Positions 2,625-56,552 are shown, counted from the stretch's first letter. The stretch is 64,000 nt of DNA from an uncultured Candidatus Saccharibacteria bacterium (GCA_964368945.1 CAYJDM010000001.1:42474-106473), one strand, 5' to 3'. Notes: generated by a model from the letters alone, not told the origin. Made by a program: numbers and translations.

Positions 2625-3227
2625 TTACTCGCACTTTCCTTCAGCTGCATTCACTGTAACTGAGGCGAATCCTGCAGACTTGAAGAGAAGCTCTAGCTGC
2701 TTCTTTGCATTCTCGGTTGCCTGAGTCAGGATTCCGCCCGCGCATGCTGCTTTGCCTATGGCGTCCTCGGCTTCCTGTCGGGCATTTGCCTCGATATTGA
2801 GATCGCCCTTCGTGAGGAGTCCTTGTCGTCGATCGAATACTTGCGTTGCTTCATTGTCGAGGATGACTGAGAAAATCTGCGGAGCGGGGAGATTGATCGT
2901 GATCGCATTGCCCGTACCCTGGAAGTTTTCCGCCTTGAGCTGCGTAAAATCGAAGCCGGCGATTACGTCGCCATGCGCGACGAGGAGGATTTTATCCCCA
3001 AATAAAAACTGCCGGATCGCTCCATAATTCGTGCTCGCCTCGATGATTTTGTCGATGCTGAATTGCGCAGTCTCGAATCGTCCGAGCGCCGTGACCTGCG
3101 TGATGACGGCTGCGCGCTCCGTGCCGAATCTGAGGTCGGGTCTTTTGACCAGCCAGCCCTGCACCGTGAAGATCACGATCAAGGCGATGATAATTCCCAC
3201 AAGGATGTATATAAGTCTTTTTCGCAT
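2625..3227 (-). CDS. DUF4230 family membrane protein
   Basis: Start at MRKRLIYILVGIIIALIV, a single N-terminal TM and DUF4230-like architecture. The longer ORF reaching 3290 is an upstream extension that runs through the promoter region. Confidence 0.6.
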   Translation of the reverse strand: MRKRLIYILVGIIIALIVIFTVQGWLVKRPDLRFGTERAAVITQVTALGRFETAQFSIDKIIEASTNYGAIRQFLFGDKILLVAHGDVIAGFDFTQLKAENFQGTGNAITINLPAPQIFSVILDNEATQVFDRRQGLLTKGDLNIEANARQEAEDAIGKAACAGGILTQATENAKKQLELLFKSAGFASVTVNAAEGKCE

Positions 3228-3247
3228 AGACGTATTATACATTATGC

Positions 3248-3386
3248 AAGCTTTTTGATGCATCGCACAGCATTTGGTATTTTCAAACATGCATGAGGTC
3301 TTTTGATGCTACTAGCCCTAGCCCATAGTCCGAATCCATCTCACATAGTTGTGCGATGCATCAAAAAGCTCATGCATGTTTGAAAA
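3248..3386. promoter_or_regulatory. Divergent promoter region carrying interleaved inverted repeats and six ATGCAT sites. Segments are A (3248-3269), B (3280-3297), rc-A (3350-3370) and rc-B (3369-3386).
   Basis: aagctttttgatgcatcgcaca and ttttcaaacatgcatgag each have an exact reverse complement about 100 bp downstream, in the same order (A B A' B'). The set overlaps the -35/-10 region of the 3402 gene (TGaTATAAT at 3391-3399) and the upstream region of the DUF4230 gene. Confidence 0.45.
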
Positions 3387-3401
3387 GAAATGATATAATG
3401 C

Positions 3402-6400
3402 ATGCATATTATGCCAAGCCTCAAAGAGTACGTTCTTACCCTAAAAAAATACAATCCGAAGACAGAGGATCGGCTGCTCAAAATCTATCTCCTCAAAGCG
3501 GGCTGGCCTATTTCTGATATAGAAACGGCCTTTGCTGAATACAATGCCGGCCATACATCAGGAGCGCCCATGCCTTCTCAGGCTGCGTCTGTTGCAGTGC
3601 CTGCGCCGGTTGTCTCCGCAATTCCCGCAGCTACCGCGTCAAAAATACCGACTTCAACTGCTATAGAAGTTGCCGCTCCTGAAATCGAGCCTGCGCATAT
3701 AGCAAAACCGATGCAACCGACTCCGACTCCGACTCCGACTCCGCCTTCGGCTTCTTCTTCAAAGCTTCCGCCAATCACTGCCGGTATAAATAGGCAGCCG
3801 TCGCCAGCTTCACCATCTCAAATAGAAATCGCGCCGCGCGAAATTTCTCCCGTGACGAATGCGATTCCTGTCGTCGGTACGAGCGCTTCGATTCCTGCCG
3901 GTATTCCGACAACGATAGCGCCTGTCACAACGGCTGTGGACATAGAAGTCCAGAGCAATGAGCCGATGGGCGGATTTTTATCTCCTTTTCCAAATACGCA
4001 AAATGCGCCATTGCCAAAAGAGCCCGAAAACGCGCTTCCTATAATTGATGGCAGCATCGATCGGGATTCATATGGAAAAATAATAGTGCCCGGAGAAAAT
4101 GCGGCGGCGGACAGCGGCATTCTCCTCAAGACTCCTACGGTTGCATCGATCGAGATCCTGACCGCGCTCGCAGATGGCGATGCTGCGAAAGTCCCTGGCG
4201 ATCCCATGTATGTCATGCCGGATATAGAGCGAGATCTCGCAGCTCCGCATGCATCTGATGCTCAGAATGATTTTAAGGAAAAAATCTCAACAGCGCCTTC
4301 CGAACATATTTTGGTATCCACGACGGCGGAAAGAGAGGTGGTGGATCCTGCGAATATGGCAGGCACTGTCATCGATCAAGCTCGAAGGCAATTTGCCAGC
4401 GAGGATATGGCGGCCAATCAAAGCGCTGTCATGCCAGCTGTCGCAGGTTCTCCGTCTGCATCCGGAGCGCGGTCGGCAATGATGGCCTCTGATTCGCATT
4501 CGGCATTTGCCGGCGGCGGCCTTGCATCAAATCAATTCACATCATCTGCCGATGTTCTCAATGGCATGTCTGCTGCGGTGCCCGCATCGACCGCGCCCGC
4601 CGGAATGGATGGTGCTGGATTGGCAAGCGGCCCCATGATGGCCGATGCATCCATAATCGCGCAGGATCCCGGACCTCAGCCAATCGTTGCTCCTATAAAA
4701 AAGAAAAAAAGCCATTTGAAATTATTCCTCTGGCTCGCCCTCATTCTCGTCCTGGGCGCTTTGGGATATGGATATACGCGATTCGTCCATGGCGTATATC
4801 TTTTCGTGAACCCGCCGGTTGGCCGCGAAGAGGTTTTGACATATATGACGAATTCGGCCGCCGCGCTTGAGACGGCTGAATATACGACGCAATTCCATAT
4901 GAGGGTTGCGCCGCGAGAACCGGGATCCGAAAGCATTGATTTGAATTCGATCGGCCTTGATCCGACCCTTCTTGCGGGAGGCATTTCTACCATAAAGGGT
5001 TCTTCGACTGCGCCGTTGACCGCTACGACTGCCGTGGCCACGGACGAGTCTGCAGACGCCGGATCTGCCACGGATACAGAGGATTTCCTTGCGGCATTTC
5101 CGGCAGATGCAAATATCGATGTGACGGTTAAGAGTTTTTATCAAAAGAATCGCGATGCGAGCGGCAATGCTGAGATTAAGAGCGATAATGCATTCCATCA
5201 TCAGGGAACATATTCGGGCGAAGGCGTGACAGCGAAGTTCGATGTCGAATCCGTAATCAAGGGCGGCGTCACTTATGTCAAAGCGAATGAATTCCCGCAG
5301 ATGCTGCTGGATATAGAGCCGGTAAAGGGCAAATGGATTTCGATTCAGAAGAGCGATGAAGATCTGCTCAAGAATGTTTTTCCATGGCTTTCGCTTTTCT
5401 CTCCGCTTCCTTCCGTCATGCCTTCTGCTAATGCTTCTGCTTCCACGACCAATGCCTCAGGCACGCCGATCATGGCCGCAAGCATGGGCTCTCTCGGCGG
5501 CGTGACGAATCTGACCAAGGGCTTCATATCGCCTCGACCGGCAAATGCCGATAAGCAGATCGCCCGGCTCATTTCCATAGCGGATGATGAAAAAGTCCTG
5601 CAGGTCATCGGCGATCCTATAAAGAATATTCAATCTGGCTCTGCTTGGTATATGCCGAAGCGCGTGACATATGTATATAAGGTCAAGCCGGATCTGGCGC
5701 AGTTCCTTGTTTTCATCGATCGCGCGAATACTATCCTGCAGAATGAATTCGGCACTTCGTCGATCATGGCTCTGACAGATGCCCAGAAAGCCGAGATCAA
5801 TGGCCCTGCTTTTGCCAAATTCTTCGAATATATGACGAATAATGGCCGCTTTGCCATCGAGGTCGACAAGTATAAGGCATTGGTCGGTTTTGAGATCAGC
5901 ATCAATGTCGTCTCCGAAACGAAGAGGACAGAGATCGGCGCGCGAATTTCTTTGGATAAAATAAATGACCGCATCTCTATCGAAGCTCCGAAAGCCGATC
6001 TTGATTTCTCTGATGCGTATACGCAGATGACTGGCCAGACGAGGGAGGTGATGGTGCTCAGGAATACCGCGCATGTCGTCGAGGCGATCAGATCCGCTCT
6101 CGCTGAATATCAGGCCGCGCATGAAGGGGCATTGCCAGATGATCTGATGGCTCTGCTCGCTGATCCTGCGGGCATCAAGGCCTTTGCTGCCGAGCCTGGC
6201 CTGGATGATAAGAATCTGCTTTCCTTGTATCAGTATAAAAAAATGCCGGCCACTGGAAATGGCAGCGGAAGCAAACAGGGATATCAGCTCGTCTACCAAA
6301 TCGCTCTTCCCAAAGTGCCAGAGCAATTCTATGAACTGCATCAGAACCTGATCGGATATGATTCTGCCAGCGCGATCTCTGCGGGCAGCGAGCGAAGCCT

Positions 6401-6641
6401 GCAGTATCTGAAATTCGTCAATGGAAAAAATACCGCAACCGAAAAAGTCTTGTCAGTCGAAGCAGAGGCGACGAAGCGATTGGATAGCGATAAGGATTTG
6501 ATCACCAATGGCCTCGAGCAATATATCGGGACGAATATTACCAAAAAAGATACGGATGACGATACGGTGGGCGATTATGATGAATTGCAGAAGGGTGGTA
6601 ATCCTAATGGTCCTGGTTCATGGGCAGTATTCCAAAAATAA
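3402..6641 (+). CDS. Large hypothetical membrane-anchored protein (1079 aa). It has a small N-terminal domain, a P/T/A/S-rich low-complexity region that includes TPTPTPTP, a single TM helix near aa 430-455, and a C-terminal region of about 620 aa.
   Basis: Uninterrupted 3.2-kb ORF. A KKKKSHLKLFLWLALILVLGALGYGY transmembrane segment is present. No recognisable catalytic motif. An alternative leaderless start at ATG 3411 lies 11 nt downstream of TATAAT. Confidence 0.6.
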   Translation: MHIMPSLKEYVLTLKKYNPKTEDRLLKIYLLKAGWPISDIETAFAEYNAGHTSGAPMPSQAASVAVPAPVVSAIPAATASKIPTSTAIEVAAPEIEPAHIAKPMQPTPTPTPTPPSASSSKLPPITAGINRQPSPASPSQIEIAPREISPVTNAIPVVGTSASIPAGIPTTIAPVTTAVDIEVQSNEPMGGFLSPFPNTQNAPLPKEPENALPIIDGSIDRDSYGKIIVPGENAAADSGILLKTPTVASIEILTALADGDAAKVPGDPMYVMPDIERDLAAPHASDAQNDFKEKISTAPSEHILVSTTAEREVVDPANMAGTVIDQARRQFASEDMAANQSAVMPAVAGSPSASGARSAMMASDSHSAFAGGGLASNQFTSSADVLNGMSAAVPASTAPAGMDGAGLASGPMMADASIIAQDPGPQPIVAPIKKKKSHLKLFLWLALILVLGALGYGYTRFVHGVYLFVNPPVGREEVLTYMTNSAAALETAEYTTQFHMRVAPREPGSESIDLNSIGLDPTLLAGGISTIKGSSTAPLTATTAVATDESADAGSATDTEDFLAAFPADANIDVTVKSFYQKNRDASGNAEIKSDNAFHHQGTYSGEGVTAKFDVESVIKGGVTYVKANEFPQMLLDIEPVKGKWISIQKSDEDLLKNVFPWLSLFSPLPSVMPSANASASTTNASGTPIMAASMGSLGGVTNLTKGFISPRPANADKQIARLISIADDEKVLQVIGDPIKNIQSGSAWYMPKRVTYVYKVKPDLAQFLVFIDRANTILQNEFGTSSIMALTDAQKAEINGPAFAKFFEYMTNNGRFAIEVDKYKALVGFEISINVVSETKRTEIGARISLDKINDRISIEAPKADLDFSDAYTQMTGQTREVMVLRNTAHVVEAIRSALAEYQAAHEGALPDDLMALLADPAGIKAFAAEPGLDDKNLLSLYQYKKMPATGNGSGSKQGYQLVYQIALPKVPEQFYELHQNLIGYDSASAISAGSERSLQYLKFVNGKNTATEKVLSVEAEATKRLDSDKDLITNGLEQYIGTNITKKDTDDDTVGDYDELQKGGNPNGPGSWAVFQK
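3715..3743 (+). repeat. Short tandem repeat (ccgact)x4 encoding (TP)n within the 1079-aa gene
   Basis: ccgactccgactccgactccgact visible in the sequence. The repeat is in-frame and a candidate for slipped-strand length variation. Confidence 0.5.
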
Positions 6642-6754
6642 TGCCGTCTGCTTTGCCTGACTGGACAAGCTTTGTAAATATGGTTCAATAATATCGAAAT
6701 AGTACAGATTCTCTGGCTTTTCCAATCAACCCAAACCCAAGCACTGCCATATCC

Positions 6755-7054
6755 ATGAATACGATCTATCTCAATGCTCTGGCTGCCGCCATCATTGCCG
6801 GCACCGAAGTCGCTCCGCATCATCTCAGATCTCTCTGCCGATTCGGGCAACAGCATGCTGACCGAATGAACCGAGTTGTTATCGGCGATATCGTCCAGTG
6901 CCAATCTTGGAATGGGACATCCATCGAACGAGGGCCCGAACCCATCCTCGGCAATGCCGATGAAGCCGAATACGTGATCGGGCAGATCCGTCTGCTTTCC
7001 GGCACGGTCTGGACTGAGGTGGAAGCGGAATTGTCTGCGCCCATTGCTGCCTGA
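6755..7054 (+). CDS. hypothetical protein (99 aa)
   Basis: Codon usage resembles the host (atc/ctc/gcc rich). A terminator hairpin lies about 40 nt downstream. Competing antisense ORFs overlap, so the call is weak. Confidence 0.3.
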   Translation: MNTIYLNALAAAIIAGTEVAPHHLRSLCRFGQQHADRMNRVVIGDIVQCQSWNGTSIERGPEPILGNADEAEYVIGQIRLLSGTVWTEVEAELSAPIAA

Positions 7055-7097
7055 GCGCGCTTTCGATTATATGCGCCGGAGAATATGTTATGCGAAA

Positions 7098-7127
7098 AGC
7101 CGTCCACCCCTGGACGGCTTTTTTCCT
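7098..7127 (+). terminator. rho-independent terminator (gccgtcca cccc tggacggc followed by ttttttcc)
   Basis: Perfect 8-bp stem followed by a T-tract. Confidence 0.5.
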
Positions 7128-7168
7128 TAGGGAAATGAGGTTTTCCACAACTTTCTTTGCATATATTC

Positions 7169-7197
7169 TTGACGGTGAACCATGGTTCACTTATACT
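7169..7197 (+). promoter_or_regulatory. Sigma70-like promoter TTGACG-17-TATACT. A perfect 16-bp palindrome GTGAACCATGGTTCAC fills the spacer and acts as a Cheo-type LexA/SOS box (GAAC-N4-GTTC).
   Basis: -35 at 7169-7174, palindrome at 7175-7190 and -10 at 7192-7197 are seen directly. GAAC-N4-GTTC is the established Gram-positive-type LexA operator core. lexA lies 350 nt downstream on the same strand. Confidence 0.6.
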
Positions 7198-7249
7198 ACA
7201 AACATACAAATTTAGTATAAGTAACGCCGAAAGGCACCACAAAGAAAAT

Positions 7250-7447
7250 ATGTCAAAAATCAACCTTATGTACATGATTAATAAAGAGATCAAATTCCTT
7301 AATAGCAAGATCGACCGCAAGATCGTACGAGGCATCTCATATGAGCGAGAGGCACGAAAGCATCGGGAATTGGTCCACAAGCTTCGCAAATTGGAGAGCG
7401 AGGCATCTATGGCTCGAACATTCTCATTCGCACATTTCCTATTCTAA
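7250..7447 (+). CDS. Small basic hypothetical protein (65 aa) downstream of the SOS-box promoter and upstream of lexA
   Basis: ORF MSKINLMYMINKEIKFLNSKIDRKIVRGISYEREARKHRELVHKLRKLESEASMARTFSFAHFLF in an AT-rich segment. Weak call. Confidence 0.3.
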   Translation: MSKINLMYMINKEIKFLNSKIDRKIVRGISYEREARKHRELVHKLRKLESEASMARTFSFAHFLF

Positions 7448-7544: not shown

Positions 7545-8138
7545 GTGAACAATTCATTCGAGGAATATAAACATAAGATCTCAGACTTTTGCCGATCCAA
7601 TCGGCGCGTGCCTGGGTATCAGGAAATTCAGCATCTTACAGGATTCAAATCCAAGAATGCCGTTTTCAAATTGATCGGCAAATTGGTTGATGATGGTCTT
7701 TTTGAAAAAGACAGCCGCGGGAAGCTTTCGATGAAGGCTTTGTTCGGCGAGGTGCCCATGCTTGGTGTCGTAGAGGCGGGTATTCCGACTGCTGCTGAAG
7801 CCAAGACTGATTTCTTGGACAGCACGAGCGTTGAAGAATTCCTGCTCGGCGATATGAAGGGCGATACATTCATGCTGGAAGTAAAAGGGGAGTCGATGAT
7901 CGATGCGCATATCGCGGAAGGCGATCTCGTTCTGGTCGAGCGCAATGAAAATCCAAAGATCGGCGATATCGTCGTCGCTCTCGTTGATGGAGGCTGGACG
8001 CTCAAATATTATCGCAAGGATAAAAATGGCCAGGTCTATCTGCAGCCTGCGAACGAAGCATTCAGCGATATTTATCCTGAATATGAAATGCAGATCGCGG
8101 CTGTCGTGCGCGCTGTCATCCGCAAGTTTAAAAAATAG
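7545..8138 (+). CDS. lexA: LexA repressor (S24 peptidase). GTG start, with a TGaTATACT extended -10 box 14 nt upstream.
   Basis: N-terminal winged HTH (GYQEIQHLTGFKSKNAVFKLIGKLVDDG), an Ala-Gly cleavage site (VEAGIP), the Ser nucleophile in GESM and a Lys in the TLKYY context. Confidence 0.9.
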   Translation: MNNSFEEYKHKISDFCRSNRRVPGYQEIQHLTGFKSKNAVFKLIGKLVDDGLFEKDSRGKLSMKALFGEVPMLGVVEAGIPTAAEAKTDFLDSTSVEEFLLGDMKGDTFMLEVKGESMIDAHIAEGDLVLVERNENPKIGDIVVALVDGGWTLKYYRKDKNGQVYLQPANEAFSDIYPEYEMQIAAVVRAVIRKFKK

Positions 8139-13279: not shown

Positions 13280-13309
13280 TGCGCGATAGGCACAACGAGG
13301 CTTTTCCAT

Positions 13310-13352
13310 GCGTAGAAGAAACCCGGACGTTACGTCCGGGTTTCTTCTACGC
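13310..13352. terminator. Long perfect hairpin (about 20-bp stem) between convergent genes; probable bidirectional terminator
   Basis: gcgtagaagaaacccggacgt-t-acgtccgggtttcttctacgc. Confidence 0.5.
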
Positions 13353-13388
13353 ATCATTCTGTCCAGCCGCTGAATTTTTGTATTCGCG

Positions 13389-36247: not shown

Positions 36248-36334
36248 GGAGAGATGGCAGAGCGGTCGAATGTACTACCTTGGAAAGGTAGCATGGGAGA
36301 AATCCCATCGGGGGTTCGAATCCCCCTCTCTCCG
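36248..36334 (+). tRNA. tRNA-Ser (anticodon GGA)
   Basis: Manual fold. Acceptor stem GGAGAGA/TCTCTCC, discriminator G, anticodon stem-loop CTACC-TTGGAAA-GGTAG, long variable arm and T-arm GGGGG-TTCGAAT-CCCCC. CCA is not encoded. Confidence 0.85.
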
Positions 36335-36341
36335 CTACATA

Positions 36342-36377
36342 ATCAAAACAGGCTGCACTGCTGCAGCCTGTTTTGAT
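36342..36377 (+). terminator. perfect 16-bp stem hairpin immediately downstream of tRNA-Ser
   Basis: atcaaaacaggctgca-ctgc-tgcagcctgttttgat. Confidence 0.4.
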
Positions 36378-36400
36378 TATGTCGAGGAAGAGGTTGATGA

Positions 36401-37309: not shown

Positions 37310-37879
37310 ATGGAAAAAGAAATAATGCCTGAAGAGCCATTACATGCGGATCTCATAAAAGAGAAGATTTATATCATAAGGGGAAAGAAAGTCATGTTCG
37401 ATAAGGATTTGGCCATGCTGTATGGTGTGTCTACGGGCAGATTGAATGAGGCTGTCAAAAGAAACGTGAAGAGATTTCCTGAAGATTTCATGTTTCTGTT
37501 AAATAAGGCCGAATTAGAGCCGTTTTTAAGATCGCAATCTGCGATCTTAAAAAATACCGATAAGGGAGGTTTGATATCGCAAATTGCGATATCAAACCGA
37601 GGCGGTATTCGAAAGCCGTCTTTTGTATTCACCGAACAAGGCATCGCCATGCTCTCCAGTGTCCTGAATAGCGACAGGGCGATAGCCATGAATATCCAGA
37701 TCATCAGGATCTTCACGAAGCTCCGAGAGATGATCGATACGTACAAGGAACTTCGAGAAAAGGTAGAGGAGATGGAAAGGGAAAACGTTACGAATTTCAG
37801 GGAAATATTCAGGATCATCAGGCTGCTTATCAAGGAAGACGAAGGACCAAAGGGTCAGATGGGGTTTAGGGCAGATTGA
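37310..37879 (+). CDS. ORF6N-domain protein (KilA-N-like DNA-binding domain), carrying an in-frame palindromic insertion
   Basis: VMFDKDLAMLYGVSTGRLNEAVKRNVKRFPEDFMF...FVFTEQGIAMLSSVLNSDRAIAMNIQIIRIF matches the ORF6N pattern. Confidence 0.7.
   Translation: MEKEIMPEEPLHADLIKEKIYIIRGKKVMFDKDLAMLYGVSTGRLNEAVKRNVKRFPEDFMFLLNKAELEPFLRSQSAILKNTDKGGLISQIAISNRGGIRKPSFVFTEQGIAMLSSVLNSDRAIAMNIQIIRIFTKLREMIDTYKELREKVEEMERENVTNFREIFRIIRLLIKEDEGPKGQMGFRAD
37524..37552. repeat. palindromic element copy 2: TTTTAAGATCGCA-atc-TGCGATCTTAAAA (inside the ORF6N CDS)
   Basis: 29-bp palindrome. Confidence 0.6.
37568..37598. repeat. palindromic element copy 3: GGTTTGATATCGCAA-a-TTGCGATATCAAACC (inside the ORF6N CDS)
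   Basis: Perfect 31-bp palindrome sharing the GATATCGCAAnTTGCGATATC core with copy 1. Confidence 0.65.
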
Positions 37880-56398: not shown

Positions 56399-56502
56399 CT
56401 TTTCCTCCTGCCACATTTCTGCATGCGTAAGTCCTCGGTATCATGAATCTGCCCTTGTTTTCCCCTGCGGATACGCATGCAGAAATGTGGCAGGAGGAAA
56501 AG
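56399..56502. repeat. Perfect 31-bp inverted repeat (arms 56399-56429 and 56472-56502, 42-nt spacer) between the divergent dsbB and ZIP-transporter promoters
   Basis: cttttcctcctgccacatttctgcatgcgta and its exact reverse complement tacgcatgcagaaatgtggcaggaggaaaag. Confidence 0.7.
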
Positions 56503-56552
56503 AGGCGGGCAAATTCCTATAATTAGTGGTAGGATAAGATTCAATAGTCTTC

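Follow-up and report, generated by a model that had tools for sequence, protein, structure and literature searches.

A probable bitopic surface protein with a predicted LprG/LolA-like ectodomain and a strain-private inverted repeat block upstream of its gene in a Saccharibacteria-like Patescibacterium

The largest gene of a 64,000-nucleotide stretch of DNA from an uncultured Candidatus Saccharibacteria bacterium (GCA_964368945.1, CAYJDM010000001.1:42474-106473; hereafter the window) encodes a membrane-anchored protein, and interleaved inverted repeats lie between this gene and a divergently oriented DUF4230 gene. With moderate confidence we favour a joint explanation in which the large gene encodes a bitopic surface protein with its N-terminus inside and its C-terminus outside, the ectodomain combines LprG/LolA-like, pilin-like, and TSP3 modules, the promoter is of the leaderless type, and the repeats are a strain-private inverted duplication. 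The protein combines known folds in a new architecture, and its family is uncharacterised, with all close members found on Patescibacteria-like contigs. The window itself appears to be chromosomal DNA of a Saccharibacteria-like Patescibacterium because its RNase J is 70-76% identical to those of Parcubacteria and Saccharibacteria metagenome-assembled genomes and because Mur ligases and MurJ are also encoded in it. An ectodomain joined through a single transmembrane helix and a tether of about 380 aa to an almost invariant cytoplasmic domain of 46 aa is an unusual architecture that may be of interest for transmembrane signalling in minimal cells. The upstream repeats matter less than first seemed and are at best an example of a promoter region rebuilt by local inverted duplication.

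The open reading frame (ORF) of the large gene spans positions 3402-6641 on the plus strand (1079 aa) and is the longest in the window, the runner-up having 736 aa. The conserved start is at 3411 (3411-6641, plus strand, 1076 aa), with a further in-frame ATG at 3402. All homologues begin with the MPSL sequence encoded from 3411, and so does P0001 (1076 aa), the gene call in a second, independent assembly of this strain. A hydropathy scan finds a single transmembrane helix at residues ~436-457 (4716-4781, plus strand) with KKKK directly before it, and in an AlphaFold2 (AF2) model a helix at residues 434-463 covers this segment. About 620 residues follow on its C-terminal side. To our knowledge, LprG/LolA-like, pseudopilin-like, and TSP3 modules, which are the three module types predicted in this C-terminal region, are extracytoplasmic in every known case. 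Because of this and of the KKKK before the helix, the protein would have its N-terminus inside and its C-terminus outside. A first-pass annotation of the sequence had described the product of the largest gene as a membrane-anchored protein with one transmembrane helix and a disordered cytoplasmic N-terminal region, which could be a surface or cell-contact protein, and all of this agrees with our results. Its picture of about 430 low-complexity residues with a (TP)4 repeat is right for the linker described below but has to be corrected for residues 1-46, which form a confidently predicted three-helix domain, and for the conserved islands within the linker. The statement that the C-terminal region contains no recognisable domain holds for sequence libraries, as the protein has no match in Pfam and NCBIfam at E<=0.1, but not for structure prediction.

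The N-terminal cytoplasmic domain (residues 1-46; 3411-3548, plus strand) is the most conserved region of the protein. It is predicted to consist of three helices (AF2 pLDDT 93), and its fold resembles HTH-like and RecX three-helix bundles. Searches against Pfam gave only insignificant matches, namely to RepB_primase_C (1.8e-4, in three of eight members) and, at E~0.1, to HTH_23 and TAF10. The domain is followed by a linker of about 380 aa (residues 47-429; 3549-4697, plus strand) that is rich in proline, alanine, serine, and threonine (together 48% of the composition) and whose identity among the homologues varies between 26 and 65% depending on the region. The linker contains a conserved island at residues 236-281 (4116-4253, plus strand; G.L.KTPTV.SI..L.AL..G..T..PGDP.YV.P.IERDLA.PH) and a tandem repeat, (CCGACT)4.5, at 3717-3743 (plus strand) that encodes TPTPTPTP. 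The first-pass annotation had proposed to look for length variation of this repeat; the closest relative (locus L019) lacks it, and in the second assembly of the strain (L008) the copy number is equal. The three-helix domain could dock to a conserved cytoplasmic partner by means of the long flexible tether. The same order of a small helical N-terminal domain inside, one transmembrane segment, and a large domain of ligand-binding type outside is found in ToxR/CadC-type regulators and RsgI-type anti-sigma factors. However, the large protein differs from these in having a disordered linker of about 380 aa between the N-terminal domain and the membrane, and it has no sequence match to the OmpR-type winged helix or to RsgI_N. 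The likeness is thus only architectural.

The region behind the membrane was modelled with AF2 (residues 430-1076) from a six-sequence alignment, with a mean pLDDT of 62.5 and a pTM of 0.53, the folded blocks reaching 70-90. Residues ~475-849 (4833-5957, plus strand) are predicted to form an open beta-barrel of the LprG/LppX/LolA type built from eleven strands and helices. Foldseek independently ranked LprG first for the ectodomain model (E 1.6e-3, probability 1.0), and the modelled domain has the open antiparallel beta-sheet barrel with helices that defines the LolA/LppX-LprAFG fold. The identity of the barrel domain to mycobacterial LprG, LppX, and LprF and to LolA and LolB is 8-12%, with no match in Pfam. 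In contrast to the lipoproteins LprG, LppX, and LprF, the large protein is anchored by an internal transmembrane helix behind a 435-aa cytoplasmic region and not by a lipobox lipid, and in contrast to LprG and LolA its barrel has two long disordered insertions and is fused to pilin-like and TSP3 modules. The pilin-like module, at residues ~866-1019 (6006-6467, plus strand), is predicted to resemble the pseudopilin protein G of the type II secretion system (T2SS), with a long helix, a sheet, and the signature IRSALAEYQAAHEGALPDDL. With a broader profile, sub-threshold matches to EpsG/GspG are obtained for these residues (E 0.4-0.7), and homologues reach Pfam T2SSG at the equivalent position (P0026, E 1.7e-5, 25.3 bits). 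Unlike GspG and EpsG, this domain is internal to the protein and lacks the class III signal peptide, the prepilin-peptidase site, and the hydrophobic helix at the N-terminus, so that assembly into a canonical pilus is not expected. The protein ends in two predicted calcium-binding motifs of the TSP3 (DxDxD...) type, DSDKDLITNGLE and DTDDDTVGDYDE, at residues 1025-1066 (6483-6608, plus strand). Bacterial TSP3 repeats (PF18884) likewise have DxDxD...D..E motifs, but the large protein has two repeats only. The residues D1025, D1027, D1029, D1047, D1049, D1051, D1055, and E1058 are invariant in the family. Pfam TSP3_bac (PF18884) is matched here by 40 of 60 superfamily members (best 4e-14), and the window protein itself has no match to it at E<=0.1. 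A PDB match to FliL (E 0.022) was not reproduced with the broader profile, and an identity with FliL was dropped.

Close homologues of the large protein are rare and confined to a few assemblies, with only six found among 5.8e9 proteins (42-100% identity). When 1.84e9 cluster representatives were scanned with a hidden Markov model profile of the family, 1066 matched at E<=1e-3 and 84 at E<=1e-30, most of the 1066 covering only the C-terminal ~350 residues. Among the GTDB representative genomes no relative was found with the family alignment, and a word-index search with the C-terminal alignment returned one further fragment only. Architectures were scanned in 154 superfamily proteins, nearly all from the top 150 of the 1066 matches. 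The three-helix domain is found in many superfamily members, strongly in about 21 of the proteins scanned and weakly in about 20 more, always at the N-terminus and with one transmembrane helix at variable distance. Most of the 70 superfamily proteins listed have a single predicted transmembrane segment at variable distance from the N-terminus, and a simple hydropathy scan finds none in about ten of them, several of which are short fragments. The more distant members (P0028, P0056, and others) lack the three-helix domain and the long linker. Some of these have an extra pilin-like insertion soon after the transmembrane segment (P0056, Pfam T2SSG at residues 164-194), and P0056 ends in a DsbA/thioredoxin domain. 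Many TSP3 repeats are all that a few giant proteins of 4295-4539 aa share with the superfamily.

Patescibacteria do not synthesize lipids of their own. By analogy with LprG, LppX, and LolA, the ectodomain would bind a hydrophobic ligand (a lipid, a glycolipid, or the acyl chains of lipoproteins) or a component of the host surface. The hydrophobic ligand would fit the YceI-type gene in the neighbourhood and the statement of a review that a mechanism of lipid uptake has yet to be identified in Patescibacteria (PMC11665869). In a more specific form, the ectodomain would be a module capturing lipids or lysolipids, the superfamily would be part of the still missing machinery for the uptake of host lipids in Patescibacteria, and the three-helix domain would couple the capture to an intracellular partner. 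We regard this extended proposal as rather unlikely. The LolA/LprG-type surface fold, the widespread family, and the YceI-type neighbour nevertheless make the protein a testable candidate for lipid uptake, by a link that rests on one model of medium confidence.

The promoter of the large gene is conserved. An extended -10 box, TGATATAAT, is located at 3391-3399 (plus strand), 11 nt before the ATG at 3411, and is followed by the overlapping sequence ATGCATGCAT at 3398-3407. The motif ATGnTATAAT is invariant in nine of nine orthologous loci, and there is no Shine-Dalgarno sequence. Because the box always lies 7-11 nt before the start codon of MPSL, the mRNA of the large gene is probably leaderless or nearly so. 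Transcription from this conserved extended -10 promoter would leave 0-4 nt as the 5' leader. The DUF4230 gene on the other side would be built alike. Its extended -10 box TGTATAAT at 3234-3241 (minus strand), as read from the sequence, is 6 nt before the ATG, the equivalent box TGTATACT/GGTATACT is found in L001, L002, L003, and L004, and TGTATAAT is presumably the active promoter of the DUF4230 gene. In one of the orthologous loci (L004, 6001-6072) the called protein, P0005, has a 24-codon N-terminal extension that contains the conserved promoter box ATGATATAAT. Because the box is inside the called extension, the start annotated for P0005 is probably an error, and its true start would be MPSL, like that of the others. 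A replication origin or dif site was also considered for the window and rejected. The cumulative GC skew increases from one end of the window to the other, and a 12-nt identity to Escherichia coli dif (GCATAATGTATA) corresponds to the -10 box region.

Upstream of the two promoters the sequence is organised in inverted repeats. Arm A (3249-3269, 21 nt, AGCTTTTTGATGCATCGCACA) contains the palindrome GATGCATC and is 100% complementary to A' (3350-3370), and arm B (3280-3297, TTTTCAAACATGCATGAG) pairs with B' (3369-3386) over 18 nt exactly or over 24 nt at 92%. A' and B' together form a contiguous 37-nt unit (3350-3386, TTTTCAAACATGCATGAGCTTTTTGATGCATCGCACA). On the other side, B is followed by GTCTTTTGATGC, a partial A, and the whole stretch 3280-3309 is an imperfect inverted copy of 3358-3386. 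Between the two sides there is a 40-nt spacer (3310-3349) that has no match in the window or in the fetched loci of relatives. The arrangement can be described as three copies of one 37-nt unit, whose reverse complement reads B followed by A: the copy at ~3233-3269 has a perfect A after a decayed B, and the copy at 3280-3309 has a perfect B and then only part of A. As single-stranded DNA, 3280-3309 pairs with 3358-3386 with a minimum free energy of -34.7 kcal/mol (z -6.9 compared to shuffled sequences). The motif ATGCAT is present at 3258, 3289, 3356, 3372, 3398, and 3402, which is six times in 150 bp compared to 53 times in 64 kb, and four of the six sites are inside the 8-bp palindromes GATGCATC or CATGCATG. 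A 21-mer, TGTGCGATGCATCAAAAAGCT, is found in the sense of transcription 7 nt before TGTATAAT of the DUF4230 gene and again 20 nt before TGATATAAT of the large gene, and each presumed start has an ATGCAT centred near -33. No inverted repeat longer than 13 nt arose when the 183-bp intergenic region was simulated 1000 times with a first-order Markov model, compared to the 21 and 18 nt observed, and the repeats are therefore real and not a product of chance. Of the ten perfect inverted repeats in the window that reach 14 nt or more, only A/A', B/B', and a pair at 56399-56502 have spacers of more than 5 nt; the other seven are tight hairpins or palindromes. Most of what the first-pass annotation had reported for this region stands, including the interleaved order A-B-A'-B', the exact 18-bp block, the six ATGCAT sites, the TGaTATAAT promoter with a probable leaderless start at 3411, and the divergent DUF4230 neighbour; the other block comprises 21 nt and not 22.

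The comparison with relatives gives a different picture of what the repeats mean. The orthologous intergenic regions of L001/L019, L002, L003, L004, L006/L007, L020, L021, and L022, which are 47-175 bp long, contain neither the inverted repeats nor the ATGCAT cluster, and this includes the closest one, L019, whose protein has 77% identity. When the window is aligned globally with L019, the coding DNA on the flanks shows ~93% identity and the positions 3355-3410 are orthologous to GGCAACAAAAAGCCGGCATGAATTTTAAAT..., which means that the right half of A' and B' are the promoter-upstream DNA of the relatives, and the window has ~100 bp (3249-3349) in place of about 35 bp. The ATGCAT sites of the window correspond to ATGCAC, GCATGA, and CGCATA in L019 and L002. 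Because the relatives carry these degenerate forms, the cluster appears to be derived in the lineage of the window. In the second assembly of the strain the whole region is identical and in the same orientation. Further copies of A and B, for which the first-pass annotation had proposed to search, were found neither in the 64-kb window nor in the fetched loci of relatives; arm A was also not found in the JGI metagenomes, and neither arm in IMG/VR. By this comparison, the block of ~100 bp (3249-3349) seems to be private to one strain and not a conserved control element. The first-pass annotation had suggested a shared operator or a DNA-looping site and had held that this would fall if the repeats were not conserved in related genomes. 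As a conserved element this suggestion has to be given up, the repeats being absent from all orthologous loci compared. We propose instead that the promoter-upstream DNA of the large gene would recently have been duplicated locally and in inverted orientation, by an event of the template-switch type, which probably generated two overlapping copies or an array of three units. Such an event would also have placed one 21-mer in like orientation before both -10 boxes. If the block is functional, it would place both promoters under a common factor that recognises ATGCAT, and this in the one strain alone.

Several points weigh against our joint explanation. No LolA or LppX_LprAFG family model matches the large protein or any of 60 superfamily members, and profile searches of the PDB return neither; in addition, the barrel domain neither follows a lipobox, as in LprG and LppX, nor is it a soluble carrier like LolA, but comes after an internal transmembrane helix and an N-terminal region of 435 aa that lacks a signal peptide. 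Because of these two findings we do not assign the protein to LppX_LprAFG or LolA. The ectodomain model is derived from an alignment of only six sequences, and we infer the binding of a hydrophobic ligand or of the host surface purely from analogy. Concerning the repeats, it is hard to see how one simple inverted copy could yield A and B 10 nt apart on one side and a contiguous A'B' on the other. Since A and B are swapped and separated on the one side, the arrangement requires two or more events, or else decay after the duplication. The perfect identity of the arms and the three changes relative to L019 that create ATGCAT could equally reflect selection for binding sites. Furthermore, the strain is sampled by two identical assemblies, and the search for further copies in its genome covered 64 kb.

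Selection for binding sites leads to the most serious competitor of the duplication, an operator array that both promoters share and that is active in this strain, which we hold to be possible but doubtful. A dimeric or tetrameric regulator would bind the palindromes with an ATGCAT core (GATGCATC and CATGCATG) in three composite sites and ATGCATGCAT at the transcription start and would repress or activate both promoters, possibly by looping. The density of six exact ATGCAT sites in 150 bp, the overlap of palindromic sites with the promoters, the ATGCAT sites placed near -33 at either presumed start and across that of the large gene, the like-oriented 21-mer before both -10 boxes, the perfectly identical arms, and the three substitutions relative to L019, each of which creates an ATGCAT, would all be expected from such an array. 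The operator arrays of gal, ara, and deo, which act by looping, likewise comprise several palindrome-containing sites over about 150 bp between divergent promoters. In contrast to those systems, the array of the window is conserved in none of the orthologous loci compared, no candidate regulator is encoded nearby, and there are no further sites: the 64 kb contain no further copy of A or B and no other intergenic cluster of ATGCAT, and neither ATGCAT nor SATGCATS is enriched overall in the window. The only regulator seen among the neighbouring genes is a LexA-like protein with a GAAC-N4-GTTC box of its own at 7175-7190.

The three other readings that we considered are far less likely than a strain-specific operator. 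The block could be a mobile element similar to a miniature inverted-repeat transposable element, 122 bp long (3249 to 3370), with perfect 21-bp terminal inverted repeats and a 5-bp target duplication, ATGCA, at 3244-3248 and 3372-3376, which would account for its presence in this strain and its absence from the relatives. We nevertheless consider this improbable. There is no second copy in the window, in the contigs of the relatives, in the JGI metagenomes (searched with arm A only), or in IMG/VR (searched with both arms), A' and B' have their counterpart in ancestral DNA upstream of the L019 promoter, and simple insertion does not explain that the internal arm B is an inverted copy of the external B'. 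The presumed target duplication may be coincidence, given that ATGCA belongs to the repeated motif. An invertible segment that switches the expression of the surface protein by phase variation is very improbable, even though the repeats of 18-21 bp are in the size range used by invertases and a surface protein is encoded downstream. Both -10 boxes are outside the repeats and no promoter-like site is inside, the segment would have merely 71-80 bp, the neighbouring genes scanned include no recombinase, and the two independent assemblies have the region in one orientation. The least credible reading is an action of the repeats at the RNA level, as alternative leader hairpins or as a small RNA. 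The strand does fold far better than shuffled sequences, as given above, but the region is between and upstream of two divergent -10 boxes and thus probably not transcribed. In addition, the pairings A:A' and B:B' cannot coexist, and a pseudoknot is ruled out by topology because no loop is left between A' and B'. The region contains no terminator-like site, its sole Rfam match is a spurious miRNA far below the threshold, and the repeats are not conserved. We thus keep the local inverted duplication as the preferred origin of the block.

The DUF4230 gene (2625-3227, minus strand, 200 aa; Pfam E 2.7e-32) has a conserved start, MRKRLIYI, at 3227. Gene callers may extend it to an ATG at 3242, and its raw ORF extends to 3290, which is an artefact of the open frame, the start being conserved in the DNA of the relatives. 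An exact-protein look-up of this DUF4230 allele returned only the same contig, and the literature on DUF4230, on the LexA motif of Patescibacteria, and on pilins of the candidate phyla radiation contained nothing relevant. The synteny with the large gene is kept in L002, L003, L004, and L008. The contigs of the homologues share the order YceI, a small gene, DUF4230 (minus strand), the large gene (plus strand), a 65-aa gene, a LexA-like gene, and EVE. The YceI-like gene of the window, of the type binding lipids or polyisoprenoids, is at 1439-2263, and such a gene neighbours the DUF4230/large-gene pair in all relatives with enough flanking DNA (L002, L003, L004, and L006). Further upstream are genes for Nramp and a pseudouridine synthase.

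Downstream of the large gene, the gap to the lexA operon (6642-7130) amounts to about 600 bp here compared to about 100-320 bp in relatives and may be strain-specific extra DNA. It contains a 99-aa ORF at 6755-7054 without a match in Pfam or NCBIfam, which is followed at ~7096-7125 by a strong terminator hairpin, AAAAGCCGTCCAccccTGGACGGCTTTTTT, that looks bidirectional. Behind the gap there is a LexA-repressed promoter at 7170-7205, in which the perfect palindrome GTGAACCATGGTTCAC (7175-7190), a Cheo-type SOS box, is placed between TTGACG as -35 and TATACT as -10 element. The 65-aa gene (7250-7447) is downstream of this promoter, followed by the LexA-like gene at 7545-8138 (TIGR00498 E 1.9e-28, Peptidase_S24). 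This suggests that the Patescibacterium of the window uses an SOS box of the Gram-positive type. LexA was also considered as the binder of ATGCAT and rejected, the adjacent lexA operon having its canonical GAAC-N4-GTTC between -35 and -10 and no ATGCAT there.

The third widely spaced inverted repeat of the window is located in another divergent region. It consists of two perfect 31-nt arms, 56399-56429 and 56472-56502, separated by a 42-nt spacer (CTTTTCCTCCTGCCACATTTCTGCATGCGTA ...), contains TGCATGC, and is just upstream of a TATAAT at 56518-56523. Tight perfect hairpins with stems of 14-23 nt and loops of 1-4 nt are found at gene ends at 13308-13354, 36337-36382, and 37523-37598. They are probably intrinsic terminators, and one of them directly follows the tRNA at 36248-36334.

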